Program-made: the position numbers and the translations under genes | Shown: piece after piece, positions 1 to 33,806 of the stretch | Numbering within the stretch: position 1 is the stretch's first letter | How the letters are laid out: every line of letters begins with the position of its first letter | Assembly (NCBI GenBank): GCA_903908785.1 | Contig: CAIVTL010000278.1 | Location: 1 to 33,806, forward strand | Direction of reading: 5' to 3' | DNA: 33,806 nucleotides | Source of the DNA: a candidate division WOR-3 bacterium | GTDB taxonomy: Bacteria > Hydrothermota > Tepidihabitantia > Tepidihabitantales > Tepidihabitantaceae | Notes under the pieces: generated by a model | What the model was told of the DNA's origin: nothing | Databases searched by the model: none | The model's input: only the letters and a program-made list of their open reading frames with translations

Positions 1-1451
1 ATCTTGGACAGCCGGCAGAAATCCTGGAGAGCTTGCCGATTCCCGAGCGAGTCGTGATTCCCATGCTGCAGGGGTTTGGCGTCGTGTTCAAACCGCTGGT
101 TGAGCCGGGCGCGGTGGTTGCTGCCGGCCAGATTATCGGCCGCGACGACGACTCGCTGTCATCGCCGATTCACGCGACCGTGAACGGCAAGGTCGCGGCA
201 ATCGCGCCGATTGCGCATGCCGGCCGCAGCGTTCCCGCCGTCGTCATCGACGGCGACGGAACCGATTCCTGGGCACGGCTCGAAGGGCACTCGGCCCAGC
301 ACCAGAAACTGACAGCGGAACAGATCGAGGAACTGCTCTACCGGTCCGGTGTCTCCGGCCTGGGCAGCGAAGGGATTCCGACCCGGTTTCACACTTCGGT
401 CATCACCCCGGCCGACGTCCGCCACCTCATCGTACACCTGACCGGCTCGGACGTGTTCAACCCGTCGCCGGGCGCGCTGCTTTCCGGCTCGAATCCTGAC
501 CGTTTCATGGCCGGGATTGAGATTCTACAGCGGGTGATGCCCAAAGCCCTTGTCCACGTCGTGCTGAGCCGCCAAGAGTCGGCATTGCTTGCGACCATCG
601 GCAGGCTGGCGGCTGGAAAGCAGGCGGTGAAACTCTATGCGGTGGACGCGAAGTACCCGCAAGCCGCGCCCGAGATGCTGGTCACGACGATACTGGGCGA
701 GGAGTTTCCGTATGGTCTCGCTGCGGCGAACATCGGCGTGGTAATCATCGACGCCCAGGCGGTGCTGCATGCCTACGAGGCCGTGGTCGAGGGGAAGCCG
801 GTCATTGAACGTATGGTCGCGCTGTCCGGGCCGGGCTTCAAGCAGCCCGGGCACGTGCGGGTGCGGGTCGGCACGCCCATCGAGCGCATCGTGGCCGGAC
901 GATTGAAGGATTCGGGCGAAGTCCGGCAGCGGGTCGTGCTGGACAGCCCGCTTTCCGGTCTCCGGGTTGACGATCTCTCATTGCCCATCGACCGCACCGT
1001 GAGCCAGTTGGTCGCCATTCCCGACGACGACCGCCGGCTGCCGTTCGCGTTCGCGCGGCCGGGCCTGCACACCGATTCGTTCTCCCGCAGTTTTGTCCCG
1101 GCGTGGCTGCCGACCGGCAAGGTGGCCGGCACGAACCGTCACGGCGAGGAACGCCCCTGTATCCAGTGCGGCTGGTGTGCCCGGGTCTGCCCCGTGCGCA
1201 TCATCCCGCACCTCATCTACCGGCAGGCGCGGGTCGAAACAAGCGAATTGCTTGTCCGCTACGGCGTCTTCAACTGCATCGACTGCAACCTGTGCAGCTT
1301 CGTCTGCACGTCCAAGATACCCCTGGCCCGGCACATCCGGGAGGCGAAAGAGAAGCTGCTTGCGGTCGGCTGCGACAATTCCTCCTGTGTTGTGTCGAAG
1401 TTCAACCTGAAGGGGGTTGAGGAGTACAGGGGAGTTAAGAGCGTCAGATGA
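1..1451 (+). CDS. RnfC/NqrA-like subunit of an Nqr/Rnf-type oxidoreductase (5'-partial; codon phase begins at nt 3)
   Basis: No in-frame stop lies between nt 3 and TTG-33, so the ORF runs off the window. VVIPMLQGFG...GQIIG...PIHATVNGKV matches the RnfC/NqrA N-terminal barrel-sandwich. GLGSEGIPT looks like a degenerate RnfC GLGGAGFPT loop. Two ferredoxin-type motifs are present: CIQCGWCARVCP and CIDCNLCSFVCT. It is the first gene of an nqrABCDEF-ordered operon. Confidence 0.75.
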   Translation, partial: LGQPAEILESLPIPERVVIPMLQGFGVVFKPLVEPGAVVAAGQIIGRDDDSLSSPIHATVNGKVAAIAPIAHAGRSVPAVVIDGDGTDSWARLEGHSAQHQKLTAEQIEELLYRSGVSGLGSEGIPTRFHTSVITPADVRHLIVHLTGSDVFNPSPGALLSGSNPDRFMAGIEILQRVMPKALVHVVLSRQESALLATIGRLAAGKQAVKLYAVDAKYPQAAPEMLVTTILGEEFPYGLAAANIGVVIIDAQAVLHAYEAVVEGKPVIERMVALSGPGFKQPGHVRVRVGTPIERIVAGRLKDSGEVRQRVVLDSPLSGLRVDDLSLPIDRTVSQLVAIPDDDRRLPFAFARPGLHTDSFSRSFVPAWLPTGKVAGTNRHGEERPCIQCGWCARVCPVRIIPHLIYRQARVETSELLVRYGVFNCIDCNLCSFVCTSKIPLARHIREAKEKLLAVGCDNSSCVVSKFNLKGVEEYRGVKSVR

Positions 1452-1452
1452 G

Positions 1453-1494
1453 GACGAAGTCAGAAGGCAGAGGTCAGAAGCTAGAAGTCAGAAG
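1453..1494. repeat. STR block, 6 x 7 bp (GACGAAG TCAGAAG GCAGAGG TCAGAAG CTAGAAG TCAGAAG)
   Basis: Phase-perfect heptamers read directly. Intergenic, between the first nqr gene and nqrB. Confidence 0.9.
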
Positions 1495-1518
1495 TGTGGG
1501 AGCGGAGGCCGGAGCGGC

Positions 1519-2616
1519 ATGAGCAAACTGCTGCACGCGTTGGTCGCGCGGTTGAACGGGCTGACGGCGAAGGGGCCGCTGAAGCGGCTGCAACCGGTGA
1601 CCGAGGCGCTCGACGAAGCGCTGCTCGGCACGGACAAGACCGCGAAGGCCGCGCCCTTCCTCTCCGACGGCATGGACGTGAAGCGAATGATGTCGCTCGT
1701 CATCATCGGGCTTGTCCCGGCAACGCTTGCCGGCATCTACTTCTACGGCTGGCGCGTGGTCGCGATGATTGTTACTTCATACGCGGTCGGCGGCATGGTC
1801 GAAGTCGCCTTCGCGATGGCGCGCCGCAAGCCGATTCACGAGGGCTTCCTGGTGACCGGGCTGATTTTCCCGCTCATCCTGCCCCCTACGACCCCGCTCT
1901 GGATTGTCGCGGTAGGCGTGTTCTTCGGCGTGTTCTTCGGCAAGGAAGTCTTCGGCGGGACCGGCCGGAATATCTTCAACCCGGCGCTCGTGGGCCGGCT
2001 GTTCATCAGTCTCGCGTTCCCGAGCCACTTCGCGACGATGTGGGGCAAGATGCACTGGGGCGGGGCGGGCGGCTTCGTCCATTGGACCGTTGACGCCGTA
2101 ACCCAGGCCACGCCCTTGATTGACTTCAAGGGCGCGCACATGATATCAACCGACCCGCTGTCGCTGTTTATCGGCCACACGCCCGGCTGCGTCGGGGAGA
2201 CGTTCCGTATCGGTATCATCCTCGGAGGTCTGTTCATCATCGTGATGCGGGCCGGGGACTGGCGGGTGCCGGTCGCGTACCTGGGCAGCGTCGTGGTCAC
2301 GGCGCTCGCCCTGCACGGTATCGTGCCGGACCGGGTCGCGCCGGTCTGGTTTCAACTCCTGTCCGGCGGGCTCCTGTTCGGCGCTTTCTTCATGGCCAAC
2401 GACCCGGTTACATCGCCCTACACATTCACGGGCCGCTGGATTTACGGCATCGCGCTCGGGGTGCTGACCGTGCTGATACGGGCGATATCCGGCCTGCCTG
2501 AGGGCGTGATGTTTGCCATCCTGCTGATGAATGCCGTCGTGCCCCTCATCGACATGATGGTGGTGGGCGCGGCCTACAAGAAGGCGACGACCCGGGTTCG
2601 CCGCTGGGCGGCCTGA
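1519..2616 (+). CDS. nqrB: Nqr subunit B / RnfD-like polytopic membrane subunit
   Basis: Multi-TM protein with RnfD/NqrB-like conserved stretches (GKEVFGGTGRNIFNPALVGR, DAVTQATPL, FFMANDPVTSP). ATG-1519 is preceded by GGAGG at 1504-1508. The ORF-track start at 1417 overlaps the upstream gene and reads through a repeat block. Confidence 0.85.
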   Translation: MSKLLHALVARLNGLTAKGPLKRLQPVTEALDEALLGTDKTAKAAPFLSDGMDVKRMMSLVIIGLVPATLAGIYFYGWRVVAMIVTSYAVGGMVEVAFAMARRKPIHEGFLVTGLIFPLILPPTTPLWIVAVGVFFGVFFGKEVFGGTGRNIFNPALVGRLFISLAFPSHFATMWGKMHWGGAGGFVHWTVDAVTQATPLIDFKGAHMISTDPLSLFIGHTPGCVGETFRIGIILGGLFIIVMRAGDWRVPVAYLGSVVVTALALHGIVPDRVAPVWFQLLSGGLLFGAFFMANDPVTSPYTFTGRWIYGIALGVLTVLIRAISGLPEGVMFAILLMNAVVPLIDMMVVGAAYKKATTRVRRWAA

Positions 2617-3200
2617 TGGCGAAGATGAAACTTGGCCGCAAGCTGCTGGAAATGCTCTTCATCGTCGGGCTGGGACTGGTTTCGGTCGCCATGCTGCTGG
2701 CGGCACAGAGCTATGCCGCCCCGGCGGTCAGGCGCTTCCAAATGCTCCGCCTGCGGACCAGCATCCTTGGGGCCGCGGGTGTCGCGACGGCGCCGGCCGA
2801 GGTGAACGGCATCTTCGAGGCGCGCGTCACGGAGGCACGGGGCAACGGCGCGACCTATTACCGCGTTGACAGTCTCGTTGTGTACGAATTCAAGGGCCGG
2901 GGACTCTGGGGCCCGGTCGAGGGCGTCATCACGCTCGACTCGGGCCTGACCCGTATCAGGAGCGTGCGCGTCCTCGTGCAGGAGGAAACTCCTGGTCTCG
3001 GCGACCGCATCAAGGACCCCGCGTACCTCGTCACCTACCAGAACAAGACCGCGCTTGAACCGCTGGTGCTGGCAATGCGCCATCAAGCGGTCGAGGCCAA
3101 CGAGGTTGACGCCATTTCCGGCGCGACGCTCAGTTCCGAGGCCCTGCTCGTTATTGTCGGCGACGCGGTCGCACAGCTGCGGCAGGCGATGGGAAAGTGA
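2616..3200 (+). CDS. nqrC: Nqr subunit C / RnfG-like FMN-binding subunit
   Basis: N-terminal TM helix plus an FMN_bind domain. Flavinylation motif DAISGATLSS (SGAT codons at 3116-3127). The ATG overlaps the nqrB stop (TGATG). Confidence 0.8.
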   Translation: MAKMKLGRKLLEMLFIVGLGLVSVAMLLAAQSYAAPAVRRFQMLRLRTSILGAAGVATAPAEVNGIFEARVTEARGNGATYYRVDSLVVYEFKGRGLWGPVEGVITLDSGLTRIRSVRVLVQEETPGLGDRIKDPAYLVTYQNKTALEPLVLAMRHQAVEANEVDAISGATLSSEALLVIVGDAVAQLRQAMGK

Positions 3201-3207
3201 GCGGAAG

Positions 3208-3837
3208 GTGAACTTCCGGAAGCTAGCCTACACCCGGCCGTGGCGGGTTTTCATCACCGGCTTCTTCAAAGAGAACGCCGTCTGCTACCAGGTGCTCGGC
3301 CTCTGCTCGACGCTCGCGGTCTCCAACAAGATGGAGAACGCGGTGGCGATGGGCGCGAGTGTGGTATTCGTCATGCTGGTGTCGTCCGCCGTCATCTCCC
3401 TGCTGCGCCGGGTGATCCCGGTCCAGTACCGCATCATCACGTACATGATTGTTACTTCGACTTTCGTCATCATCATTGACCATTTCCTCAAGGCCAACTT
3501 CCCGACAATCAGCGGCCAACTCGGCCCATACGTCGGCCTGATTATCACCAACTGCATCGTTATGGGCCGGCAGGAGGCCTTCGCCATCAAGAACGGTGTC
3601 GGGCTTTCCATCCTCGACAGCCTGGGCGCGGCCCTGAGCTACAGTTACGTACTGGTCGGCATCGCCGCGGTGCGCGAGTTCCTCGGGTTCGGCAGTCTGC
3701 TCGGCGTCAAAGTCACGCCGCCGCACTTCGAGAACTGGGTGGTAATATCCATGGCGCAGGGCGCGTGGTTTGTGATGGCGATTTTCGTCTGGGGCTTCCG
3801 GCGCATAGCGAAGCTGAAGCCCCTGGAACAGGAGTAG
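3208..3837 (+). CDS. nqrD: Nqr subunit D / RnfE-like membrane subunit
   Basis: FKENAVCYQVLGLCSTLAVS...ITNCIVMGR is typical of NqrD/RnfE. GTG-3208 is the first in-frame start after the nqrC stop. The ORF-track start at 3055 would overlap nqrC by 146 nt. Confidence 0.8.
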   Translation: MNFRKLAYTRPWRVFITGFFKENAVCYQVLGLCSTLAVSNKMENAVAMGASVVFVMLVSSAVISLLRRVIPVQYRIITYMIVTSTFVIIIDHFLKANFPTISGQLGPYVGLIITNCIVMGRQEAFAIKNGVGLSILDSLGAALSYSYVLVGIAAVREFLGFGSLLGVKVTPPHFENWVVISMAQGAWFVMAIFVWGFRRIAKLKPLEQE

Positions 3838-3840
3838 AAC

Positions 3841-4431
3841 ATGCACCTGAACCCGCTGGTCCTCCTGGTCGCGGCGATATTCACCCACAACATCGCCCTG
3901 ACCTACCTGCTCGGCATGTGCCCGATGATGGCCATGTCGCGCCGCATCAACACCTCGGTCGGCATGGGCCTCGCCGTCATGTTCGTCACCGCGGTCACCG
4001 CGCCCATCGACTGGGTCATCTACAACAAAGTTCTTGTCCCGACGCACTCCGAAGTCATGATGCTCCTTGTCTTCATCATCGTCATCGCCGCCGTGGTCCA
4101 GTTGCTCGAACTCCTGATGCGCCGGTTCCTGCCCGCGCTGCACGCCGGGTTCGGGCCATTCCTGCCGCTGGTTACCGTCAACACCACCATTTTCGCGGTT
4201 TCGATATTCTCGGTCATGCGCAACTACAACCTCTGGCAGAGCACGGCATTTGCGGTTGGCTCGGGCGCGGGCTGGGCCCTGGCAATCATCCTCATCGCTG
4301 GAGTCAGAAACCGGGTTCAGCTCGTCAGCGACGTGCCGGCGGACCTGCGCGGGGCCGGCATCACGATGATAATCGCCGGCATTCTTGCGCTCAGCTTCAT
4401 CGGTTTCTCGGGTATGGTGGCAGTACAATAG
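3841..4431 (+). CDS. nqrE: Nqr subunit E / RnfA-like membrane subunit
   Basis: 6-TM protein. IFTHNIALTYLLGMCP and LPLVTVNTTIF are NqrE/RnfA-type motifs. It starts 4 nt after the nqrD stop. Confidence 0.85.
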   Translation: MHLNPLVLLVAAIFTHNIALTYLLGMCPMMAMSRRINTSVGMGLAVMFVTAVTAPIDWVIYNKVLVPTHSEVMMLLVFIIVIAAVVQLLELLMRRFLPALHAGFGPFLPLVTVNTTIFAVSIFSVMRNYNLWQSTAFAVGSGAGWALAIILIAGVRNRVQLVSDVPADLRGAGITMIIAGILALSFIGFSGMVAVQ

Positions 4432-4466
4432 GATGAAGGACAAAGGCGGAAGGACCAAGACGGAAG
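4432..4466. repeat. STR block, 5 x 7 bp (GATGAAG GACAAAG GCGGAAG GACCAAG ACGGAAG)
   Basis: Starts 1 nt after the nqrE stop. Intergenic. Confidence 0.85.
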
Positions 4467-4476
4467 GGGCACGGCC

Positions 4477-5580
4477 GTGATAACCATGCTGGTGATGGCC
4501 GGGCTGCTCATCACCGTGGCGGTCGTGCTGCTCGTGGCCGAGCGCATCCTCATCAGCTATGGCGAGTGCTCAGTTACCATCAACGACAAGCAGTGCATCC
4601 AGGTCGAAGGTGGCGAGACCCTGCTCTCCGTCCTCAACCGTCACAAACTCTTCGTTCCTTCAGCTTGCGGGGGCAAGGCGACCTGCGGGTTCTGCAAGGT
4701 CGTGGTAAGGGGCGGGGCCGGCACAATCCTGCCGACGGAAGAAATATTCATCAACAAGGCCGAGCGCGAACTGGGCATGCGCCTCGCCTGCCAGGTCAGG
4801 GTCGAGCGGCCGGTCAGGGTCCAGATGCCGGAGACCCTGCTGGGCGCACGCGAGTATACCTCCGAAGTGCTGGCGGTGGAGCAGCTCACTTATGATACGC
4901 GGCTCATCCGGTTCGGGCTCAAAGGCGGCGATGAAGTCCACTTCAAACCCGGCCAGTACGTCCAACTCCTCGTGCCCGGTACGGACCAATATCGCGCCTA
5001 TTCAGTCGCCAGTCCTCCAAGCCGCGCTCTCGCCTCTCGCCTCTCGTCTCTCGTCTCTCCCGAGTTTGAGCTCATCATCCGTCGCGTGCCGGGCGGCCTC
5101 TGCACCGGCTGGATTCACAGCGCGGTCGAGAAGGGCGACGAAGTGCGATTCACCGGGCCGTTCGGCGACTTCTATCTCCACGAAGACTCGAACCGGGAAA
5201 TCGTGGCCATCGGCGGTGGCTCGGGAATGGCCCCGATGCGGTCCATCATCCTGCACCTGGCCGAGCAGGGCATGCCGCGCAAGGTGACCCTCTTCTTCGG
5301 CGCGCGCCGCCGGCGCGACCTCTTCTACGTCGCGGAGTTTCAGGCGCTCGAACGACTGTATCCGAACTTCCGCTATCTCCCGGCGCTTTCCGAGCCCCGA
5401 CCGGAAGACCACTGGACCGGCGAAACCGGGTTCATTACGCAGACCGTGCAGAAGCACATCGTGCCGGGCAGGGAAAGGGAGGCCGTGCTCTGTGGCCCGC
5501 CGCCGATGATTGACGCGGCCATGCGCGTGCTGCCGCGCATCGGCGTGCAACCCGAGCATACCTACTTCGACAAGTTCTGA
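4477..5580 (+). CDS. nqrF: Nqr subunit F (TM anchor + 2Fe-2S ferredoxin + FAD/NAD(P) reductase)
   Basis: N-terminal TM helix. 2Fe-2S motif SACGGKATCGFCK...ACQ. FAD motif YRAYSVAS. NAD motif GGGSGMAPMRS. GGAAGGGG lies 7 nt upstream of GTG-4477. A heptamer repeat (5028-5062) is inserted in frame just after the RxYS motif. Confidence 0.88.
   Translation: MITMLVMAGLLITVAVVLLVAERILISYGECSVTINDKQCIQVEGGETLLSVLNRHKLFVPSACGGKATCGFCKVVVRGGAGTILPTEEIFINKAERELGMRLACQVRVERPVRVQMPETLLGAREYTSEVLAVEQLTYDTRLIRFGLKGGDEVHFKPGQYVQLLVPGTDQYRAYSVASPPSRALASRLSSLVSPEFELIIRRVPGGLCTGWIHSAVEKGDEVRFTGPFGDFYLHEDSNREIVAIGGGSGMAPMRSIILHLAEQGMPRKVTLFFGARRRRDLFYVAEFQALERLYPNFRYLPALSEPRPEDHWTGETGFITQTVQKHIVPGREREAVLCGPPPMIDAAMRVLPRIGVQPEHTYFDKF
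5028..5062. repeat. STR block, 5 x 7 bp (CTCTCGC x2, CTCTCGT x2, CTCTCCC), inside nqrF
   Basis: Encodes roughly the LASRLSSLVS part of ...SRALASRLSSLVSPE..., between the RxYS motif and the next beta-strand. Confidence 0.9.
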
Positions 5581-5583
5581 GGC

Positions 5584-5617
5584 GGGAAATGGGACAAAAG
5601 GGACCAAAGAGACACAA
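5584..5617. repeat. STR block, 7-9 bp units (GGGAAAT GGGACAAAA GGGACCAAA GAGACACAA)
   Basis: Covers the start codon and the first 10 codons of menA. Confidence 0.75.
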
Positions 5618-6512
5618 GGCAGGCATCTGGCTGCGCGAGTTGCGCGCGCCGTTCTTCGTCGGCACGGTGATGCCCGCGGTCTTCGGCGCGGCCTACGCCC
5701 ACTACGCCGGCGCCGCGTTCAACTGGCCGCTGTTCGGCCTGACGATACTCGGCACCGTTCTCACCAACGCCGGCCTGAACATGACCAATGACTACTTCGA
5801 CCACAAGAGCGGCGATGACGACCTGACCCCGGCCACGCCGGTGTCCGGCGGGAGTAAGGTTATCCAGGAGGGGCTACTGAAGCCGCGGCAGGTACTGGCC
5901 GCCGGTATTGCCTGTCTCGCACTTGCCGCAGTAGTCGGCCTGTATCTCAATGCCGTGACCGGCGGGCGCGTGCTGCTGATTGTTGGCATCGTCGGGATGG
6001 TAATAGCGTGGTTCTATACCGCGCCGCCGCTGAAGTTCGGGCACCGCAGCGGGGTGGGCGAGGTGGTCTGCGTGCTCGGGTGCGGGCCGGTAATTGCGTT
6101 CGGGGCGTTCTTTGTGCAGGCGCGGGTATTTTCGTGGGCGGCGGTGTTTGCCAGTCTTCCCATCGGACTGTTGATGGGTCTGGTGCTCTTCATCAACGAG
6201 TTCCACGACGTACACGCGGACGGGGCCGTGGGCAAGCGGACTTTGGTGGTCGCGCTCGGCACCGGGGCCGCGTCTTTCGTGCTCGCTTTCACGCTGGCGG
6301 CCACCTATCTGCTGACAGTCGTGCTCGTGGTTCTGAATATCCTTGCGCCTGCGTCGTTGTTCGCACTGGTGACCCTGCCGCTGGCTGTATTCGCGGTAAT
6401 CCGGGCCCGGCGCTATCACGCCGAGTCGCCGAAACTGCTGCCGGCGAACTTCGCGGTCATCGGCACGCACCTGCTCTTCGGCGCGATTCTCACCCTGGTG
6501 GCGGCATTATGA
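5589..6512 (+). CDS. menA: UbiA-family prenyltransferase, MenA-like (1,4-dihydroxy-2-naphthoate polyprenyltransferase)
   Basis: 8-9 TM helices. NDYFDHKSGDD and NEFHDVHADGAVGKRTL are Asp-rich UbiA/MenA motifs. The first 10 codons (MGQKGPKRHK) lie inside a repeat block. Confidence 0.75.
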   Translation: MGQKGPKRHKAGIWLRELRAPFFVGTVMPAVFGAAYAHYAGAAFNWPLFGLTILGTVLTNAGLNMTNDYFDHKSGDDDLTPATPVSGGSKVIQEGLLKPRQVLAAGIACLALAAVVGLYLNAVTGGRVLLIVGIVGMVIAWFYTAPPLKFGHRSGVGEVVCVLGCGPVIAFGAFFVQARVFSWAAVFASLPIGLLMGLVLFINEFHDVHADGAVGKRTLVVALGTGAASFVLAFTLAATYLLTVVLVVLNILAPASLFALVTLPLAVFAVIRARRYHAESPKLLPANFAVIGTHLLFGAILTLVAAL

Positions 6513-7387
6513 ACGGTGTGGGTCGGATACTTGCGCCCATCGAGGCCGCTCTGGCCGCGGTCGAAGAGACCATGGCCCGCCGCAATAATCCCGGCCTCGA
6601 AGTGCTTGCCGGGGGGAAGCGACTGCGCCCCGCGCTCCTCTTGTTCGCCGCCGGGGCGGCCGGGCACGGAGAACACGGACGGACACGGACGAACACAGAC
6701 GGACACGGGCAGGCAATGGCCGACGCGGTTTTGCTGGCGGCCGCGGTAGAGATGGTCCACACGGCATCGCTGATTCACGACGACGTGATTGACGAGTCGA
6801 GCGAGCGACGGAAAGGCGCGGCTCTCCACAAGGTCATCGGGACCCGGGCAGCCATCATCCTGGCCGACTATCTGTTCGTGCAGGGCCTGGCATTACTGGA
6901 ATCGGTCAAACGAACCAGCTTGGTTCCCGAGGTCGTCCGCGAGGTCTTGGTGATGTGTGAAGGGCAATGGCTAGAGATGAAAGTCGCGGCGGGCGCAACC
7001 TGTACCGAGCGACAGTACCATGAGGTAATCGAGAAGAAGACCGCGGCCCTGTTCGCGTTCTGCTGCCGGGCCGGCGGGCGGTTGCGGGGAGCCGATGCCG
7101 CGGAGTTGGCCGCGCTGGATGAGTTCGGCCGGAACTTCGGCTTCGTGTTCCAGTTGCTCGACGATGCGGAGGACATGGGGGAGGGAGAGAGGAAGAAAGG
7201 GAGTAAGAGAGTGAGGGCGGAACAGAACAGTATTGAGCGGGCGATTGCCCAATGCGGCGGACGGCGATACCTGCGCCGAAGCGCGCTGGAATTCGCCCGG
7301 CGGGCTCGGACCGCGGCGCGGAAGATCGCCAACCCGGTGGCCCGGCGAGGCATGATCCGGCTACTGGAATCTGTAGCGGAGGGGTAA
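6509..7387 (+). CDS. Polyprenyl diphosphate synthase (trans-IPPS family)
   Basis: KRLRPALLLF, LIHDDVIDES (first DDxxD) and FQLLDDAEDM (second DDxxD). ATG-6509 overlaps the menA stop (ATGA). The ORF-track N-terminus (6008-6508) is an out-of-frame read through menA. Two repeat blocks are inserted in frame. Confidence 0.75.
   Translation: MNGVGRILAPIEAALAAVEETMARRNNPGLEVLAGGKRLRPALLLFAAGAAGHGEHGRTRTNTDGHGQAMADAVLLAAAVEMVHTASLIHDDVIDESSERRKGAALHKVIGTRAAIILADYLFVQGLALLESVKRTSLVPEVVREVLVMCEGQWLEMKVAAGATCTERQYHEVIEKKTAALFAFCCRAGGRLRGADAAELAALDEFGRNFGFVFQLLDDAEDMGEGERKKGSKRVRAEQNSIERAIAQCGGRRYLRRSALEFARRARTAARKIANPVARRGMIRLLESVAEG
6662..6710. repeat. STR block, about 5 x 10 bp (GAACACGGAC GGACACGGAC GAACACAGAC GGACACGGGC), inside the polyprenyl synthase gene
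   Basis: Encodes GHGEHGRTRTNTDGHG, just upstream of the first DDxxD helix. Confidence 0.85.
7177..7230. repeat. Purine-rich degenerate repeat (GGGAGAG/GGAAGAA/AAGAGAG...), inside the polyprenyl synthase gene
   Basis: Encodes GEGERKKGSKRVRAEQN, directly after the second DDxxD motif. The periodicity is weaker than in the other blocks. Confidence 0.5.
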
Positions 7388-7442
7388 GTGAGCGTTGCGA
7401 ACACCGAGGGCGTGCGCCGCGACGCTGTCTTCTCGTTGCCGG

Positions 7443-7471
7443 TTGCCACCAAGTCCAAAGCCGTCTAGACT
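7443..7471 (+). promoter_or_regulatory. Sigma70-like promoter (TTGCCA-17-TAGACT), 11 nt upstream of TTG-7483
   Basis: Read directly from the sequence. It implies a 5'UTR of only about 4-5 nt. Confidence 0.35.
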
Positions 7472-7482
7472 GACAATCTGAA

Positions 7483-7866
7483 TTGAACCGAAACCTCTGC
7501 CGAGTCACGGTCCTTGACCTGCTGCTCATCGCGGGGCTGCTCGGCCTGCCCGGCTGGGCACTGATTGTATCCTGGCGCGCCGCCCGCGAGCAGCCCGTCG
7601 CCTACATCTACGAGAACAACCGGTTGCTCGGCGCCTATCAACTCGACCGCGACCAGCTTATCGCTATCGGGGACAAGGCCCGGCCGGACATGAAGATAGA
7701 AATCAAGGGCGGCGCAATCCGCGTTGCCGAATCGGACTGTCCCAAGGGCGTATGCAAGCAGGCCGGTTGGGTGCGCACGCCCGGACGGTCAATCGTCTGC
7801 GTGCCGAACAAGGTGCTGATTGAACTGCGGGGCGAGCGCAAGGGATATGATGCGGAAAGCTACTAG
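7483..7866 (+). CDS. NusG domain II-containing protein (DUF1312 family)
   Basis: N-terminal TM helix, then the family-typical ...IKGGAIRVAESDCPKGVCKQAGWV...GRSIVCVPNKVLIEL. TTG-7483 is the only in-frame start codon available. Confidence 0.65.
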   Translation: MNRNLCRVTVLDLLLIAGLLGLPGWALIVSWRAAREQPVAYIYENNRLLGAYQLDRDQLIAIGDKARPDMKIEIKGGAIRVAESDCPKGVCKQAGWVRTPGRSIVCVPNKVLIELRGERKGYDAESY

Positions 7867-9142
7867 CGGGAAGTCCGAAGCTCGAAGTCCGAATGACGAA
7901 TGCAGCCCCACGGACAGCATTGTGAGGCTATCGATTCTGGTCGCCGGCGCCTCGGTGCTGCAGGTTGCCGAGTCGCTGCTCCCGCATCCGCTGCCCGGAG
8001 TCAGGCTCGGTCTTGCCAACATCATCACGGTCATCGCGATGGTCTACATCGGCCCGGGCAGCGCGATACAGCTTGCGGTGCTGCGCACGCTCATCAGTTC
8101 AATGGTGCTGGGAACGTTCCTGACGCCGACCTTTGTGCTTTCTTTCTCGGGTGGCGTGGTCAGCGCGGTCGTCATGGTTCTCTTGTATCGTTTCTCGCAC
8201 GGGGGCGGGCCATTCCGTTTCAGCCTCATCGGCATCAGCGTGGGCGGGGCGGTGAGCCACATCCTGACCCAGGTCGCGCTGGTCTATCTGCTCTTCATCC
8301 GCAGTAGCGGCGTGTTGCTGCTCTGGCCGTGGCTTGCGCTGTCGGCGGTAGTCACGGGAGTAGTCACCGGCATGATTGCGGTTCAGGCCGTACGGCGACT
8401 GGACACCGGCGAGGCGAGTGGGGTGGCGCTGACCCCGGCGTCGGACCGGTCGGACGTGTCGGACCGGTCGGACAAGGATTCACTCGTCCGGCGCATTCGG
8501 CCGGAAGTGAAGATTACCACGGTTGTGGTCCTTGGGCTCGCGGTGGTTGTCTTCGCGAACTACGCGCTTTATGCCGCCGTCCTGGTGCTGCTCGCGGCCG
8601 TCACGGTGCTGGCCCGGGTTCGGTTCAGCCGTCTGCTGGCCGGGCTGAAGCGAATCTGGGCGCTGCTCGTTGCCGCACTGGTGATGCCGGTCATCTTCTC
8701 GCCCTGGGGAAGAGTGCTCATCGCAATCGGGCCGGTGCGAGCGACCGACCAGGGCCTTCACGCAGGCGCCAGCTTCGCTGCGCGCATCCTCTTGTTGTTC
8801 TTCGCGACCGCCCTTTTGGCCCAGACGACCGCGCCGGAGGAAATCGCGGGCGGGCTGGAGAAGCTGCTCGGCCCGCTGCGGGTCTTCCGGGTAAGGCCGG
8901 GCCGGCTGGCGCGGTCGCTGAGCCTTTCCTGGTACTACTTCCCCCAGTTCTGGCAGAGCGTTCGGCGCATGGTTGGCGAGAGTCGCGGCCGCAAGGGCTG
9001 GCTGGACCGGACTATCCATCTTCCGGGCGATGTCGTTGCCGACCTGTACTTCGCGGCCGACCGACTTGCCGACTCCGGGTCGGATGGACGCGACCGGCAG
9101 CCGGCGCCTGGCGGGTTTCCGCCACCGCCTGACCAGGAGTGA
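7847..9142 (+). CDS. Fusion protein: Gx transporter family (Hpre_diP_synt_I-like) N-terminal half + EcfT/CbiQ-like ECF T-component C-terminal half
   Basis: N-terminal half: LPHPLPGVRLGLANIITVIAM...GISVGGAVSHILTQV. C-terminal half: IRPEVKITTVV..., LLFFATALLAQTTAPEEIAGGLEKLL, CbiQ/EcfT-like. The halves are joined by the peptide SDRSDVSDRSD, encoded by a 9-bp tandem repeat. The start is uncertain: ATG-7847 or GTG-7922, which lies after a repeat block. Confidence 0.65.
   Translation: MMRKATSGKSEARSPNDECSPTDSIVRLSILVAGASVLQVAESLLPHPLPGVRLGLANIITVIAMVYIGPGSAIQLAVLRTLISSMVLGTFLTPTFVLSFSGGVVSAVVMVLLYRFSHGGGPFRFSLIGISVGGAVSHILTQVALVYLLFIRSSGVLLLWPWLALSAVVTGVVTGMIAVQAVRRLDTGEASGVALTPASDRSDVSDRSDKDSLVRRIRPEVKITTVVVLGLAVVVFANYALYAAVLVLLAAVTVLARVRFSRLLAGLKRIWALLVAALVMPVIFSPWGRVLIAIGPVRATDQGLHAGASFAARILLLFFATALLAQTTAPEEIAGGLEKLLGPLRVFRVRPGRLARSLSLSWYYFPQFWQSVRRMVGESRGRKGWLDRTIHLPGDVVADLYFAADRLADSGSDGRDRQPAPGGFPPPPDQE
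7870..7904. repeat. STR block, 5 x 7 bp (GAAGTCC GAAGCTC GAAGTCC GAATGAC GAATGCA)
   Basis: Lies between the NusG-II gene stop and the conserved part of the Gx-transporter gene. Confidence 0.85.
8438..8473. repeat. STR block, 4 x 9 bp (GCGTCGGAC CGGTCGGAC GTGTCGGAC CGGTCGGAC)
   Basis: Encodes ASDRSDVSDRSD, the linker between the Gx-transporter and EcfT halves. The same unit family occurs at 27262. Confidence 0.9.
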
Positions 9143-9373
9143 CGCCCGCGCCCGACAGCGGAAGCCCCGGATATGCGGTCGGGGCCCATGGCATCAGGCA
9201 GAGCGCCCAGAACCGGTTCCAAACGAGGCGGCGCGCCCGGCTGGCATGAAATGTGATACCTTGCGTAGAGATGGTACTGCGCCTTCAGAGGTCGGTTGCT
9301 GACCGTTCGGACGGGTCGGTCTGGCATGATACCAGCATACGAGGATATGGACGCTTACAAACGAGGAGGTAGA

Positions 9374-10549
9374 ATGACCAAGCACAGAGTGCTGCTGACA
9401 GCAGTACTGGTCGTGGCCCTTGCGGCCGGTGGAGCGGTAGGCGCGCAGCTGAATTTCGGCGGCGACCTGAAGCTGCACCTGTTCGATATGTCCACAGGCT
9501 CGAGCACGATTATGGGCTGGGATTCGCTCGGTAACCCCGTGCCGGTCAAATACGACACGACCGACCGTTGGGACATGGGGTTTGAGCGAGCGTACCTGTA
9601 CTTCGTGGTCCAGATTACCGACCAGGCATCGGTGGACATCGAGCCGGAGTTCGTAGCGCGGAGCGGCGCAACCCCGCAACTGGGTATGCGGATTGGCACC
9701 CAGCGCGCGTCAAACGAGTCCGGCTTGGGCGTCGCGTTCAACGCGGCGAAGCTGACCCTGGCGGTCCCGTGGAACCTGCAGGTCTCGGGCGGAATCTTGC
9801 GGCCGCTTTTCACCGAGGACTACGGCGACATGAAGGCGTTTCAGGAGACGAACCGGTACGACAAGACCGGCGCCAACTACTGGTTGCAGGCGTGGCACGA
9901 CATGGGGATCGAGGTCTACAAACCGTTCGAACTGAAACTGGGCGAGGAGTACGTCTCGATTCCGACGTATCTCTACCTGCTGAACGGCGCGCCGAACTAC
10001 ATCGATATCCCGGCATCCGACAACAACAGCAACAAGATGGTGATGTTGCACGTCGCGCCGGAGTTCTGGAAGATACGGGTGATGGGTTCGTACGGGTTCG
10101 GAAAGTGGGACGATGAGGGCAAGTACAACGTGATGCGCTATGCCGCCGGGCTGAGCGCCGCGTTCGGGCCCGTGTGGCTGCGGGCGGAGTACATGGGCGG
10201 TCGGTGGGACAACGAGATGTGGCAGCAGTCCGGGGAGCCGCTGGTCATCGACACCTTTGCCGCGAAGCCGTTCGGCTACTACGCCAAGCTCGGGGTGAAC
10301 ATCGTGCCTGACCGGCTCCGTTTCATCCTCGACTACGACTACGCGGAACACAACTTCAACGGGTTCCTGTCCATCGGGAACCCGGCGGTGAAGCAGCAAT
10401 ACACAACCGTGTCCGGGACACTGGGGTGGACCGTGTTTACCGGGTCGCAGGTGATGCTCGGCGTCGAGAAGGCGATGTGGAAGACGAGCGACGGGAACAC
10501 CAAGCTCGACTTCCTGCGGCCGACCCTGGGCTGGCGCACGGTCTTCTAA
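9374..10549 (+). CDS. Outer-membrane beta-barrel (porin-like) protein
   Basis: AGGAGG lies 5 nt upstream of ATG-9374. Signal peptide MTKHRVLLTAVLVVALAAGGAVGA. Alternating amphipathic beta-strand pattern rich in Y/G/W. C-terminus ...LGWRTVF has the terminal Phe typical of OMPs. Confidence 0.6.
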   Translation: MTKHRVLLTAVLVVALAAGGAVGAQLNFGGDLKLHLFDMSTGSSTIMGWDSLGNPVPVKYDTTDRWDMGFERAYLYFVVQITDQASVDIEPEFVARSGATPQLGMRIGTQRASNESGLGVAFNAAKLTLAVPWNLQVSGGILRPLFTEDYGDMKAFQETNRYDKTGANYWLQAWHDMGIEVYKPFELKLGEEYVSIPTYLYLLNGAPNYIDIPASDNNSNKMVMLHVAPEFWKIRVMGSYGFGKWDDEGKYNVMRYAAGLSAAFGPVWLRAEYMGGRWDNEMWQQSGEPLVIDTFAAKPFGYYAKLGVNIVPDRLRFILDYDYAEHNFNGFLSIGNPAVKQQYTTVSGTLGWTVFTGSQVMLGVEKAMWKTSDGNTKLDFLRPTLGWRTVF

Positions 10550-10561
10550 GAGGATTCCGTC

Positions 10562-11650
10562 GTGATGAGAGCCCCAGTCAGACTGCCGGCTGCGCCTCGC
10601 CGGTGGTCAATTGCTCGGGGGCTCCCCGACGGATTGTCTCCGCTGCGGCTGCTCGCATTCGCCTCGGCAGTCGTTTTGCTGGCCGCGGGGTGCCGCCATT
10701 CGGGCGCAGCGGTGCTGCGCAAGCAGACCCGGCTGATGATGGACACCTACGTGACAATCCAGGCCACGGGCCCGGCGCAGACGGCGGACAAGGCAATTGA
10801 GGCGGCGTTCGGACGACTGGAGGAGATCTCCCACAAGTTCAACTTCCTCGACTCGACCAGCCCGGTCCACGCGTTCAACGTCAACAATGCGCCCATCACC
10901 GACCCGGAACTGGTCAAGGTAGTGCAGGCCGCGGTGGCGGTGAGCGCGGCCTCGGGCGGTGCGTTCGACATCACGGTGCGGCCGCTGGTCGAGCTCTGGG
11001 GCTTCTACGGCGACCACCCGGCGGTGCCGTCGCAGCGGGCGATTGACTCGTGTCTCAGGATGGTCGGCTATAAGAACCTGGTGGTCGAGCCGGGCCGCGT
11101 GACGAAGCTCCGGCCGGACGTCACTATTGACCTCGGCGGCATCGCCAAGGGCTATGCCCTCGACGAAGCGGCGCGGGTGCTGCGGGCGGCGGGCATCGAT
11201 TCCGCGCTCATCGACCTCGGCGGGGACGTGTTCGCCATCGGCAGGAAGGGCAACCAGAACTGGAAGGTCGGCATCCGCAACCCGCGGAAGGATGGCGTCA
11301 TCGGGGTGGCCGCGGTGTCGAACCTGGCGGTGGTAACCTCGGGTGACTACGAACGCTTCTTCTTCGGCCCGGACAGCGTCCGCTACTGCCATATCATTGA
11401 CCCGGCAACGGGCTGGCCGCCGCGCGGCCTGATAAGCACGACCGTGGTGATGCGCGACCCGCTGACGGCGCAGGGCTGGTCCAAGGTGCTGTTCATCCGC
11501 GGCACCGACGCGCTGCCGCTCATCGAGAAGACCGGCGGCATCGAGGCGATTCTGATTACCGACAGCATGAGGGCAATCTGTACGCCGGGCCTGGTCAGCG
11601 CGATGGATACCACGCGGCTGAACGGAGTGACGAATTCCGCAGGCCGGTAG
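10562..11650 (+). CDS. apbE: FAD:protein FMN transferase (ApbE/Ftp), probable lipoprotein
   Basis: MMDTYVTIQA, DITVRPLVELWGF, IDLGGIAKGYALD, DLGGDVFAIG, VVTSGDYERFF and HIIDPATGWP are classic ApbE motifs. LLAAGC is a lipobox-like signal. Confidence 0.88.
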   Translation: MMRAPVRLPAAPRRWSIARGLPDGLSPLRLLAFASAVVLLAAGCRHSGAAVLRKQTRLMMDTYVTIQATGPAQTADKAIEAAFGRLEEISHKFNFLDSTSPVHAFNVNNAPITDPELVKVVQAAVAVSAASGGAFDITVRPLVELWGFYGDHPAVPSQRAIDSCLRMVGYKNLVVEPGRVTKLRPDVTIDLGGIAKGYALDEAARVLRAAGIDSALIDLGGDVFAIGRKGNQNWKVGIRNPRKDGVIGVAAVSNLAVVTSGDYERFFFGPDSVRYCHIIDPATGWPPRGLISTTVVMRDPLTAQGWSKVLFIRGTDALPLIEKTGGIEAILITDSMRAICTPGLVSAMDTTRLNGVTNSAGR

Positions 11651-11686: not shown

Positions 11687-12274
11687 ATGAAGAGACTTAC
11701 GTGGCTGCTGGTGGCATTCCTGCTTATCGCGCTGGTGCGAACGGCCGGCGCGGTGGTCCTGTTGAACCACGAAGCGGCGCTGAAGGCGATGTTTCCCGAT
11801 GCCGATAAGATAGTGACCGAGGAGGTGAGCTTGACGCCGGACCAGGTTACCGCGGTCAAGAGCCACCTCGGCGATAAGTGGACGCTCTACCAGGCCGGCG
11901 GACAGTCTGAGGAAGAGAAGGAAGCTGACACGGCGGTGTTCTACTTCGGCACCAAGGCGGGCGAGAAGACCGGCGTAGCCCTGATTGAGGTTCAGCCCGG
12001 CAAGTGGGGCCCGGTGAAGTTCATCGTGGCAATGGACCTCGCGGGCAAAGTCAAGGACCTGGCGGTCATGTCCTACGTTGAGCAGCGGGGCCGCCCGATT
12101 TCGACCAAGCGGTTCCTCGGCCAGTTCGTCGGGAAGACCGGCAAGAGCCAGGTTACCGTCGGCAAGGACGTCGACGCCATTTCCGGCGCAACCATCTCCT
12201 CACGCGCGACGGCCTTCGCGATCAAGAAGGTAATCGCCCTGTACGACGCGGTCTACCTCGAGCCCGAGAAGTAA
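11687..12274 (+). CDS. Secreted FMN-binding domain protein (NqrC/RnfG/PplA-like flavinylation substrate)
   Basis: GGAG RBS 8 nt upstream of the ATG and a signal peptide. FMN_bind-type C-terminus with DAISGATISSRA (SGAT codons at 12182-12193). It lies directly downstream of apbE. Confidence 0.75.
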   Translation: MKRLTWLLVAFLLIALVRTAGAVVLLNHEAALKAMFPDADKIVTEEVSLTPDQVTAVKSHLGDKWTLYQAGGQSEEEKEADTAVFYFGTKAGEKTGVALIEVQPGKWGPVKFIVAMDLAGKVKDLAVMSYVEQRGRPISTKRFLGQFVGKTGKSQVTVGKDVDAISGATISSRATAFAIKKVIALYDAVYLEPEK

Positions 12275-13843: not shown

Positions 13844-13916
13844 GGGTTCTGGGGTTCGGGGGTTCACGGGTTCGGGTTCCAAACCAGAACCCCAGAACCC
13901 GGGAACCCCTGACCCC
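13844..13916. repeat. Inverted pair of GGGTTC-type STR blocks forming a long imperfect hairpin
   Basis: GGGTTCTGGGGTTC (13844-13857) is the exact reverse complement of GAACCCCAGAACCC (13887-13900). It lies between the sigma and anti-sigma genes. Confidence 0.85.
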
Positions 13917-26982: not shown

Positions 26983-27483
26983 TTGGTCTACGACGCCACG
27001 GTGCTGTTCTGTGACAGATTCGTGGACAAGCGCTCACGCACGCATGACCAGATGGTGCAGGCGGCGCGAAGCGGCGTGCAGAATATCGCGGAGGGCAGCA
27101 TGGCTTCGGCGACGTCGAAGAGGACAGAGCTGAAGCTGACCGGCGTTGCGCGGGCCAGCCTGGAGGAGTTGCTCCTGGACTTCGAGGATTTCCTGCGCCA
27201 GCGCGGGCTCAAGCTCTGGAGCAAAGATGACCCACGCGCTTTGGCAGTGAGGCGGCGCTATCAGTCAGACCGGTCGGACTTGTCGGACAGAGAGGCGCAA
27301 GCGCAAGCGAGGAAGCGCAAGCAGAGGCCAAGAATCCGATGCTTGAGCTTGGGCTTGAGCTTGGGTAAGCAGCCCCCGCTGCTGCACCGGCAGATGCAGC
27401 AGTTGGAGCAGGCGTTCCTCGCCGAGGGCGGGTTCACCGAGCGGCTGTACCGCGAGCGACGGGCGCGTCGGCAGAACCAGTAG
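26983..27483 (+). CDS. Four-helix-bundle protein with 'suffix' domain (formerly '23S rRNA intervening-sequence protein' family); N-terminus lacks a canonical start
   Basis: VYDATVLFCDRFV...MVQAARSGVQNIAEGS and the C-terminal QQLEQAFLAEGGFTERLYRERRARR are family-like. Conserved-looking residues (PPHGGYRKLRSFQAAQL) continue upstream to the TAG at 26905-26907 with no ATG/GTG/TTG before TTG-26983. Three repeat blocks are inserted between the two domains. Confidence 0.55.
   Translation: MVYDATVLFCDRFVDKRSRTHDQMVQAARSGVQNIAEGSMASATSKRTELKLTGVARASLEELLLDFEDFLRQRGLKLWSKDDPRALAVRRRYQSDRSDLSDREAQAQARKRKQRPRIRCLSLGLSLGKQPPLLHRQMQQLEQAFLAEGGFTERLYRERRARRQNQ
27262..27365. repeat. Three abutting STR blocks: 3 x 9 bp (CAGTCAGAC CGGTCGGAC TTGTCGGAC), GCGCAA-type hexamers, and 2 x 12 bp (GCTTGAGCTTGG)
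   Basis: All lie in frame inside the four-helix-bundle gene and encode QSDRSDLSDREAQAQARKRKQRPRIRCLSLGLSLG. Confidence 0.85.
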
Positions 27484-29238: not shown

Positions 29239-32200
29239 GTGCGAATAAAAGAGCTCCAGCTCATCGGTTTCAAGTCTTTCCAGGACAAAGCGACGCTGCG
29301 TTTCTCGCCGGGCCTGAACGCGGTCATCGGGCCGAACGGCTGCGGCAAGACCAACATCCTCGACGCATTGCGCTGGGTGCTGGGCGAGCAGTCGTTCACC
29401 ATGCTCCGCTGCGCGAAGAACGAGGACCTGATATTCGGCGGCACGGCCACGGTAGCGCCGGTGAACTACGCCGAGGTGAAGTTGGTGATGGATGACGTGG
29501 AACAGGGGTCAGGGGTCAGGGGTCAGGGTCCAGGGATGACAGAGGTGGAGATACGGCGCAGGTACTTCCGGTCGGGCGAGAGCGAGTACTACCTGAACAA
29601 GCAGCCGTGCCGGTTGCGTGACATCCAGGAGGTCTTTTTCTCGGCCGGGGCCGGCACCAAGGCCTATTCGATATTCGACCTGCGCCAGATGCGCGAGATT
29701 ATCTCCGGCAACATCCGGAAGATGTTCGAGGAGGCGGCGAGCCTGGCGAAGTACAACGACGCCAAGGCCGACTGCCGGCGCAAGCTCGAACTGACCGCGG
29801 GCGACCTGATGCGCCTCGATGACATCATCGCTGAGCGCGAGCGGTTCGTGCGCAGCCTGCAGCGGCAGGCCGGCCGGTTGCGGGCGTTCGACAAGCTGAA
29901 GACCGAAGAGAAGGGACTGCGGCTGCTGGAATTGAAGGCCGACTACGAGGCGATGCAGCGGGACCTCGGGCGGGCTCAAGCCGACACCGAGGCGCTGGAG
30001 CAGGCCGAGGCCGCGCGGGTGGCGGACATCCGGCGGCTGGATGAGGAGCTTAAGATTCAGCGCGGCCGGGTGCGCGACCTGCAGGCGCTGAAGGATGAGC
30101 TGGCCGCCAAGGTGCAGGCCCAGCGGCAGGTGTTGTCCGACCTCGAAGGTCGGGACCTGCTGGCGCGGCAGCGGATAGAGTTTCTTGCCAGCGCGACCGG
30201 CCAGGCCGAGACCGAGCGCGCCGCGCTGGCGGAGAGCGTGCTCCAGATGGAGCAGACGTTTGAGCAGACTCTTGCTCGACTGGCCGAGGCGAACGAGCGC
30301 CAGGCGCGGGCGCAGGAGCAGCTCGAACGCCAGCGGGCGCTGGTGCAGTCGCTCGAGGAGCAACTGTACGGACTGCGCAGCCACGAGACCGCGCTTCGGC
30401 AGCAGGTCCAGGAGCGGCAGGAACAGGAGCAGGGCGGCCGGCAGGAACTGGCAAGGCTCGATGCGACGATTGACAACCAGCGCGAGACCGTGGAGCGGCT
30501 GGCCGGAGAGGCGAGCGCGGTCCGAGAACGAAGAACGAGGAACGAAGAACAAAGAACGGAAATCGGGCTGAAGGTCGCGGCGGCGGCCGCGGCCATCGAG
30601 ACGGGCCGGAAACGACTCGAAGCATTGCGCGCCGAGTTCGTCCAGGCCCGGGACGACCGGAACCGGCTGCGCGCGGATGATGCCAGGCTGCGCGAGGAGC
30701 GGGCCGGGCTGGAAACCGATTTGGCGGTGCTGCGCGCCGGGATTGCGAGCGAGCAGGCGGAGGTGAGCCGAGCCGCGCTGGCCGAGGCGTTGCGCGGCGA
30801 GGCGGGCGCGTTTCTCGACGTGACGTCCGGGTGGGAGCGGGCGTGCGAGGCAGCGCTGTACGCGGTGGTTGATTTTCTGGTCGCAGACCTGCCCGGGCCG
30901 GACAAGCTCGGGGAACTGGCCGAGAAGCGCCCGGACCTGCGGTTCGGCTTCCTAGTGGAAGAAAGGGTTCAAGGGTTCAGGGGTTCAGGGGTCCAGGCGG
31001 AGGAGCCCGGAGACCTGCCCTCAGACCCGGCCGTCATTGGACCACTGTCGGGGTTTGTGAAGGTGAAGGCGGAGGCGCCGGCCGCGCTGCACGAGCTGGT
31101 CAATGGGTGCCTCGTGGCCGCGAGCGCGGGCGAGCTGGGCCGGCTGGCGCAGCAGTTCCCGGGCTGGTCGTTTGTGACGCAGGACGGCGTGTGCCGGTTC
31201 TCGGACGGGCGGCTGGTAATTGAAGGGCGCGAGAGCGGGCGGCTGAGCGCGGGGCGGGCGATTCACGACAAGAGCGAGCGGCTCGGCGCGGTCGATGCGG
31301 AACTGGTCGGGATTGCGACGAGCGAGGCTGCGTTGGCCCGGCGCCGCGAGGAGCTGGAAAAGGAAATCGGGCAGGTTGAGTTCGAGGTCGGCGAGACCGG
31401 GCGGGAGAAGGCTTCGCTCGATGCGTCGCTGGAGCTGATTGCCGCGACCGGCGAAGATATGGGCCGAGACGTGGAACGGCTCAGGGCCGCGCAGTATGCG
31501 GCCGCGGCCCAGAAGCGGGCGGTCGAGGAGAAGCGGGCCGCGCTCGCCGCAGCGGGCGGCGAGCTTGAGACCCGGACCCAGGCCGGCACCGGCGCGCTCA
31601 AGCAGGCCGAGGAGGAAGCACGCAAACTCGAAGAGCAGGTCAAGGCCGGGCTGGATTTGTCGTCGCAGGCGCTGGCCGAGCTCTCCGACGCGCGGCAGGC
31701 CGGATCCCGGCTTGAGGCCGAGAATGCGTTCGCCAAGCGCCAGATTGACGACGGCCGGCGCCGGCTGCACGAGTACGCGGCGGCAGCGGAGCGCAACCGC
31801 GATGAGAGCGCGGGGCTGGAGAAGGAAATCGGCGACCGGGCCGCGGAGATTGAGCAGGCGCGTTCCATCCTGACCGACCTTGACGCGGAAACCGGGAAGC
31901 TGCACATCGGCGAACTGGCACGGGCCGAGGAGGCGCTGGAGGCCAACCTCGCCGAACTGCGCCAGTCGCAGGAGCGAAACCAGAACGTCTTGATGGAGCA
32001 ACGGCTGAAGCTGTACGAGCTGAACCAGCGGTTTGCCGCCATCAGCGAAGAGGCGAAGTCGAGCTATGGAACCGACATCGCCGCGTTCCAGCCCGAGGCG
32101 GCGGAGGGCGCCGAGGAACGGCTGGCACAAGTGCGGCAGCGGCTCGAAGCGCTCGGGCAGGTGAACCCGCTGGCCGCGCAGGAGTACGCGCAGGAGAAGT

Positions 32201-33778: not shown

Positions 33779-33806
33779 CTAACTCTCGTCGGTTTTCTCC
33801 GGCGGC

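Follow-up and report, generated by a model that had tools for sequence, protein, structure and literature searches.

The 33,806-nt contig CAIVTL010000278.1 of a candidate division WOR-3 bacterium (assembly GCA_903908785.1; the whole contig is referred to below as the window) carries a gene, at positions 7850 to 9142 of the forward strand, that joins two membrane proteins in one reading frame. Its product is almost certainly a fusion of an energy-coupling factor (ECF) S-component of the EetB type with an EcfT-like T-component (EetB::EcfT). The gene probably specifies a single-chain flavin exporter of the EetB/FmnA type within a flavinylation operon, and the 9-bp tandem array present at the domain junction is a late passenger of an ancient fusion. 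To our knowledge, it is not well defined how diderms supply periplasmic ApbE with the flavin adenine dinucleotide (FAD) needed to flavinylate Rnf/Nqr and further redox proteins; the sole characterized ECF-type flavin exporter that we know of is that of Listeria, which needs the shared EcfA/A' ATPases. The features of the fusion gene are the following (AF2, AlphaFold2; pLDDT, predicted local distance difference test; TRF, Tandem Repeats Finder):

7850..9142, + strand: EetB::EcfT fusion gene, 430 aa from the ATG at 7850 or 431 aa from the ATG at 7847 (open reading frame, Pfam, database match)
7870..7893, + strand: second short tandem array, GAAGTCC x 3.4, in the variable N-terminal tail (TRF)
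7937..8380, + strand: S-component (EetB/PF07456) domain, residues 31-178, six helices (Pfam, Foldseek, AF2, hydropathy)
8408..8500, + strand: linker between the domains, on the cytoplasmic side, residues ~188-218; disordered, with very high variability across species (pLDDT, alignment, congener DNA, Arg clusters)
8440..8473, + strand: 4 x 9 bp tandem array with a GTCGGAC core, coding for (SDx)4 (TRF, exact pattern match)
8480..8971, + strand: EcfT/CbiQ-like domain, residues 212-375, four transmembrane helices and the first coupling helices (Pfam, PDB profile, Foldseek)
8999..9142, + strand: final amphipathic helix (residues 385-414), then a disordered tail, without a further hydrophobic helix (AF2, hydropathy)

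The reading frame is open from 7820 to 9142 on the forward strand. We place the start at 7850 because an identical protein in the public databases has 430 residues; the beginning of the gene overlaps the stop codon (7864-7866) of the NusG_II gene upstream. Pfam assigns residues 31-178 to Hpre_diP_synt_I (PF07456; 119.4 bits against a cut-off of 30; 1.7e-34) and residues 212-375 to CbiQ (PF02361; 61.2 bits against a cut-off of 25; 1.5e-16; positions 3-159 of the 216 in the hidden Markov model, HMM). A first-pass annotation, made from the sequence alone, had recognized a Gx transporter (PF07456) module and an EcfT/CbiQ-like module in a single frame, and the Pfam matches bear this out at a length of 430-431 aa. 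Close relatives go under the NCBI name 'Gx transporter family protein'; a scan of the fusion against NCBIfam retrieved no matching 'Gx transporter' model, the only match being the CbiQ equivalog TIGR02454, which at 41.9 bits lies below its cut-off of 111.8. Besides the fusion gene, no other S-component (PF12822) and no extra copy of CbiQ or PF07456 was found in the genome. The annotators' remark that the window holds no S-component gene is moot, since the Gx half of the fusion is itself an ECF S-component.

The fold of each half was examined in an AF2 model built on 27 homologues (pLDDT 78.5; predicted template modelling score, pTM, 0.75). Disorder in this model is confined to the N-terminal tail, to residues 199-209, which form the repeat peptide and have pLDDT values below 50, and to the C-terminal tail. 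Foldseek matched the N-terminal half to RibU (3p5n_A, TMt 0.72; TmRibU, 5kc0, 0.65-0.70; probability 1.0) and the C-terminal half to EcfT chains, 7nnt_D, 6zg3_D and 4huq_T among them (probability 1.0, ~225 aligned columns); the family profile run against the PDB also retrieved EcfT 4huq_T, at 2e-25. With an S fold in one half and a T fold in the other, the protein thus combines an ECF S-component with an ECF T-component in one chain. The S part comprises six helices, so that both of its ends lie on one side of the membrane, and it is followed by an Arg-flanked linker (RRL...RRIR) and then by the T part, in which amphipathic (coupling) helices come after four hydrophobic ones. The helix counts and the Arg clusters thus place the junction in the cytoplasm and both halves in their normal orientation: the S domain ends, and the T domain begins, on the cytoplasmic side, which settles in favor of compatibility a point of topology that the first-pass annotation had raised. 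The folds of both halves, as well as the cytoplasmic position of the coupling helices, are shared with the group II ECF importers (RibU/FolT/PanT with EcfT and EcfA/A'; PDB 4huq, 4rfs, 5d3m, 7nnt). Unlike the fusion, these are made of four separate subunits, import their substrates and depend on ATP, and they have a full-length EcfT that bears both Ala-Arg-Gly signatures.

Several diderm phyla share the fusion, which is ancient. It is present in all ten other genomes of the genus (in one of them split over two contig ends) and, at 42% identity, in two further genera of the family, while three sister genera have a stand-alone EetB only, of 177-193 aa (G011:C11:36513-36977, G012:C3:181163-181615 and G015:C25:5816-6280). 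More than 120 homologous clusters, formed at 90% identity and reaching down to 44% identity with the WOR-3 protein, all possess both Pfam domains, with the exception of one fragment. A HMMER scan of 1.84 billion representatives at 50% identity yielded 243 proteins at E ≤ 1e-30, over 100 of them fused proteins of full length (~360-450 aa). In a collection of species-representative genomes, Armatimonadota, Candidatus Poribacteria, Planctomycetota (including Brocadiaceae), Cloacimonadota and Lentisphaerales yielded fused matches of full length at 35-39% identity; proteobacterial matches in this collection cover the EetB half only. A pair of separate EetB and EcfT genes was not found in the genus. 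The possibilities that the fusion is recent, or an artefact of assembly joining or of a frameshift, were considered and rejected, one open frame running across the junction in 16 independent assemblies and in many metagenome contigs.

The same pairing of domains underlies the flavin exporter of Listeria monocytogenes, in which EetB (equated with PF07456) is an FAD-binding ECF-S subunit and FmnA an ECF-T subunit; both are required, as are EcfA and EcfA', to export FAD for flavinylation of the ApbE type (by FmnB) of proteins including PplA (Rivera-Lugo et al. 2023, PMC9973259). These authors found eetB to share a neighborhood with eetA in 3,328 genomes and with apbE in 2,169, often together with Rnf, and equate NusG_II (PF07009) with EetA in their Data Set S1. 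They also cite three single-chain EetB+ECF-T proteins (WP_021725833.1, MBE6480012.1 and MBQ3267887.1) as support for EetB being an ECF-S; going by their description, on which our comparison is based, the domain architecture is the same as here. The S-T architecture and the class of function are thus already published. The paper (PMC9973259) does not describe a fused family of diderms, a truncated T domain, the absence of ATPases or a porin partner.

The surroundings of the fusion gene closely resemble those of the Listeria exporter. In the window they are made up as follows:

33..5580, + strand: Rnf/Nqr-like complex of six genes (Pfam)
5589..6512, + strand: UbiA prenyltransferase (Pfam)
~6500..7387, + strand: polyprenyl synthase (Pfam)
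7483..7866, + strand: EetA homologue, a small membrane-anchored NusG_II protein (Pfam NusG_II, 4.9e-22)
9296..10549, + strand: porin-like outer-membrane beta-barrel, no Pfam family (AF2, Foldseek, synteny)
10562..11650, + strand: ApbE flavin transferase (Pfam ApbE, 2e-79)
11687..12274, + strand: protein with an FMN_bind domain, likely a flavinylation substrate (Pfam FMN_bind, 2.1e-11)

The flavinylation operon thus consists of the genes for EetA, EetB::EcfT, the porin-like protein, ApbE and the FMN_bind protein, and lies downstream of the Rnf/Nqr-like complex and of the quinone-biosynthesis genes. NusG-II and ApbE genes had been named in the first-pass annotation as usual neighbors of the Gx family; both are indeed here, the former directly upstream of the fusion and the latter two genes downstream. 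The order NusG_II, fusion, porin, ApbE is repeated in Armatimonadota, Planctomycetota and other phyla, and a NusG_II gene precedes the fusion at loci L006, L008 and L009. With Listeria the locus shares a PF07456 S-subunit paired with an ECF-T-like partner, the neighbors EetA/NusG_II, an ApbE-type flavin transferase, an FMN-binding client, UbiA and polyprenyl synthase, and, presumably, the task of delivering FAD to ApbE. It differs in that S and T form one polypeptide, that the T part aligns with CbiQ over roughly three quarters of the model and has no recognizable second Ala-Arg-Gly, that no EcfA/A' was found in the lineage, that the host is a diderm with a dedicated porin gene in the cluster, and that an Rnf/Nqr-like complex takes the place of PplA as the client.

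The Rnf/Nqr-like complex comprises an RnfC-like subunit, RnfD/NqrB, an FMN_bind subunit, two Rnf-Nqr membrane subunits and an NqrF-like Fer2-FAD-NAD protein, and its subunits are probably clients of ApbE. Its first subunit combines RnfC_N, NQRA_SLBB, Complex1_51K and 4Fe-4S domains, and the last one, the NqrF-like protein, stands in place of RnfB, so that the complex mixes Rnf and Nqr traits. In the Armatimonadota locus L008 a FAD synthetase gene (FAD_syn domain, 202 aa) is inserted at 6982-7590, between porin and apbE, which fits a role in FAD supply. A sigma-54-dependent response regulator is encoded upstream of the module at the same locus (L008:2291-3631).

The porin-like protein has no match in Pfam or NCBIfam. 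It begins with a signal-peptide-like segment and ends in a Phe residue, and its AF2 model (pLDDT 67.6) is an all-beta barrel that Foldseek aligns with 16-strand porins at ~1e-12, including the phosphate and pyrophosphate porins OprP and OprO. Homologues with 31-40% identity occupy the same position, between the fusion and apbE, at five other loci (L008:5804-6883, L006:8137-9294, L018:2366-3586, L011:7309-8436 and L015:7933-9081), from Armatimonadota, Planctomycetota, Cloacimonadota and two further lineages. The barrel may provide a dedicated outer-membrane passage for flavins or for their phosphate-bearing products.

By analogy with Listeria, from which both the substrate, FAD, and the direction of transport are carried over, flavin export is the likely function of the fusion. 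The EetB domain, as the FAD-binding and toppling subunit, would be tethered by the disordered cytoplasmic linker to the EcfT-like scaffold. In this position it would bind cytoplasmic FAD and topple against the T scaffold, so as to release FAD at the periplasmic face; ApbE would then move the flavin mononucleotide (FMN) moiety of FAD onto the Rnf/Nqr subunits and the FMN_bind protein. Several points weigh against such a scheme. The function is transferred, by analogy, from a Firmicute at low identity, and the sequence by itself does not fix the direction of transport. Export in Listeria needs EcfA/EcfA', of which no counterpart was found in the genome or in 25 relatives, and the published mechanism is therefore inapplicable unchanged. 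Moreover, the fusion falls short of a full-length T unit, the last quarter of CbiQ being missing, and all genomes compared are metagenome-assembled drafts.

The shortening of the T domain is a consistent trait of the fused proteins. The match to CbiQ ends at HMM position 159 of 216 in the WOR-3 protein and at positions 139-167 in fused homologues from five other genomes, whereas stand-alone CbiQ genes (241-269 aa) in these same foreign genomes match up to position 210-211. In the model there is no hydrophobic helix past residue 328, only amphipathic helices and the disordered tail. In T units, the most conserved feature is a pair of Ala-Arg-Gly/Ser signatures, each with an essential Arg, that are docking sites for the ATPases (PMC3246461). 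The first of them aligns with G381-R382-K383 of the fusion, where 22 of the 27 homologues have Arg and three have Lys. No second signature is recognizable in the fusion. The sole candidate, made up of A404 (27/27), D/E405 and R/Q/A406 (Arg in 9/27), is placed by its position in the helix and not by alignment. The C-terminal 92 aa searched on their own against the PDB returned no EcfT, only matches at chance level (Raf1, integrin), and the second coupling signature cannot therefore be placed by alignment.

The ATPases themselves were sought at three levels. The first-pass annotation had seen no ECF ATPase gene in the window and had pointed to the rest of the genome as a place for orphan EcfA or EcfS genes. 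The observation holds for the window, in which no ATP-binding cassette (ABC) ATPase is encoded, and extends to the whole assembly (4.2 Mb, 88% complete), in which neither an ECF-type ATPase nor a PF12822 S-component was found: the best scores are 155.7 bits for TIGR04520 (cut-off 315) and ~161 for TIGR04521 (cut-off 330). The assembly has ~49 matches resembling ABC ATPases, and its nine best ABC domains score higher against UgpC/MalK, DrrA, MntA, MacB/LolD, FtsE, PstB, LptB and other families. Among 26 genomes of the order (that of the window and 25 relatives; 16 of them at least 90% complete, and including 12 fusion-carrying relatives, one a one-contig genome), none has a TIGR04520 match at E ≤ 1e-50. 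At 13 fused loci from several phyla, no ABC-ATPase-like frame lies within 6 kb of the fusion. The ECF-like ATPases that do occur in foreign carriers (Poribacteria, Lentisphaerales) are neighbors of a CbiQ gene that is separate from the fusion and full length; of the three stand-alone CbiQ genes in the foreign genomes, two adjoin ECF-like ATPases. The sister genera represented by G011 and G012 (97-98% complete) have the bare EetB, with no CbiQ-like gene and no ECF ATPase.

With these data in hand, two accounts of how transport might be energized may be proposed. One, which is possible but less likely than not, is that the ECF-derived S-T fusion of diderm phyla such as WOR-3, Armatimonadota, Planctomycetota and Cloacimonadota forms a branch that has lost its ATPase motor, together with the docking end of the T domain, and exports flavin independently of ATP. 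FAD would then move down its gradient or with the membrane potential, ApbE acting as a sink, and the fusion would team up with EetA and with a dedicated outer-membrane channel resembling the phosphate porins. The solitary S-components (BioY and those of the CbiMN/NikMN type), which transport without T and A units (PMC3246461), set a precedent for ECF-derived membrane proteins that operate with no ATPase motor; unlike the fusion, the solitary S-components take up biotin or metals and are not joined to a T domain. The other account is a conventional ATP-driven ECF exporter whose A/A' ATPases were missed, either because their genes are unassembled or because the T domain is the docking site of an ABC ATPase that is divergent or of a general kind. 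The dependence of Listeria EetB/FmnA on EcfA/A' (PMC9973259), the retention of a basic residue in the first signature and the abundance of ABC-ATPase-like matches in an incomplete genome all speak for it. However, the absence of TIGR04520 matches throughout the order and of any ABC ATPase near the fused loci, the better fit of the genome's best ABC proteins to other families, and the lack of a recognizable second signature and of the C-terminal part of CbiQ in all fused forms, when the stand-alone CbiQ proteins are full length, make this account rather unlikely.

Import or salvage of riboflavin, FMN or FAD from the periplasm, with the porin giving passage through the outer membrane, appears less probable still. 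It is suggested by the RibU fold of the S domain, by the conserved porin gene alongside and by the fact that most characterized ECF systems are importers (PMC3246461). The S half, however, belongs to PF07456/EetB and not to the RibU family (its ECF_trnsprt score, 21.9 bits, is under the cut-off for that model), and in Listeria the direction of each S-subunit is strict, EetB exporting and RibU importing (PMC9973259). The tight linkage to apbE, which requires extracytoplasmic FAD, likewise argues against import.

That the fusion has a polyprenyl- or quinone-related role in the membrane, which the old name 'heptaprenyl diphosphate synthase component I' would imply, is highly improbable. The Pfam name and the database labels of many relatives, JGI annotations included, point that way, as do the UbiA and polyprenyl synthase genes, which are found upstream of the fusion here and at L009 (at L006 the polyprenyl synthase alone); but both halves have ECF S and T folds, EetB binds FAD and is required for its export, and the electron-transfer locus of Listeria, too, contains its quinone genes as distinct members (PMC9973259). 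The label 'heptaprenyl diphosphate synthase' on relatives of EetB::EcfT is a historical misnomer, which the present result corrects.

The tandem array at the junction was analyzed in the same comparisons. TRF reports it at 8440-8473 with a period of 9 and 3.8 copies. A pattern of four GTCGGAC-NN units matches once without mismatches, and none of 100 dinucleotide-preserving shuffles contains it. The array codes for the peptide SDRSDVSDRSD, which occupies the middle of the inter-domain segment; the array is therefore real and situated exactly at the junction. The identity of the junction peptide with the 4 x 9 bp array, as originally proposed, is thus confirmed; the coordinates given with it (8438-8473) need correction, as the array begins at 8440. 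In the alignment of homologues no part of the protein varies more than the linker, and the frame is open across the junction in all linker DNA compared, from the genus and from other phyla. In that set, an (SDx)n peptide encoded by TCGGAC-type DNA is found only in the window's genome (G000) and in two congeners (G007 and G001), and degenerate relics of the array persist in two more (G006 and G008). Five other congeners have unrelated, often low-complexity linkers; in members of other phyla the linkers are ordinary, of comparable length and free of repeats, and the linkers of relatives at 44-56% identity are without the array. Since congeners and other phyla have the same fusion with non-repeat linkers, the fusion long predates the array. 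The idea, put forward in the first-pass annotation, that insertion of the 9-bp repeat had recently created the fusion in this lineage, by replacing the stop/start region between a Gx transporter gene and an EcfT gene, can be discarded with near certainty, for although the array is non-random, sits exactly at the junction and is of a kind frequent within genes of this genome, the gene is fused without it in five of the ten other congeners, in the 44-56% identical relatives and in at least five other phyla, and the comparison with relatives disclosed one fused gene in every congener and no split pair that an array might have linked. The array had no part in making the fusion.

Linker DNA of other congeners (L100/L002, L099/L003, L101 and L104) has a different low-complexity filling, for instance GGGGTTCAGGGGGCCCGGGGTCCAAGGGTTC, which resembles GGGTTCAG-type arrays at window positions 13844-13876 and 30965-30997; the linker is therefore a hotspot for the landing and turnover of repeats. 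The N-terminal tail of the fusion, in which the second array lies, is also variable among homologues. Further arrays are found within coding genes of the locus, at 1456-1495 (N-terminus of RnfD), 5027-5059 (NqrF-like) and 6657-6708 (polyprenyl synthase), all with units of 7-10 bp. In-frame filling of variable protein segments with repeats thus seems a genome-wide habit and nothing special to the junction. GTCGGAC itself is not a dispersed repeat of the genome: outside the array it occurs at 10 sites, compared with 8.1 expected by chance for the whole window. One pair of these motifs at 9-bp spacing, at 27273-27288, is a two-unit copy of the array motif. The longest tandem array of the window, CCTCCTA x 10.6 (TRF score 113), is found at 33712-33785, at the contig end. 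Altogether, these data show the array at the junction to be a recent, probably slippage-derived occupant of a linker that varies freely. The repeat is simply an example of a genome that freely fills disordered linkers with short tandem arrays.

In the literature we found nothing relevant on the Gx transporter together with NusG and ApbE. Meheust et al. 2021 (PMC8238504) make no mention of ECF, NusG_II or PF07456, a paper on the S-component fold (PMC11109136) mentions neither PF07456 nor S-T fusions, and a review of ApbE (PMC12052999) merely cites the Listeria work. We did not find described there a large fused family in diderm phyla whose T domain is shortened throughout, a lack of ECF ATPases in whole carrier lineages or a conserved porin partner.

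The significance of the fusion lies in its combination of traits: S and T parts are welded together, with a T domain that is cut short, entire lineages lack any detectable ECF ATPase, and the arrangement is spread over several uncultivated diderm phyla. If transport by the fusion is indeed independent of ATP, there would possibly be a trans-envelope route for flavins in these organisms. It would also mean that the ECF architecture can work without its motor, at least for export, which would bear on the toppling mechanism of S-components.

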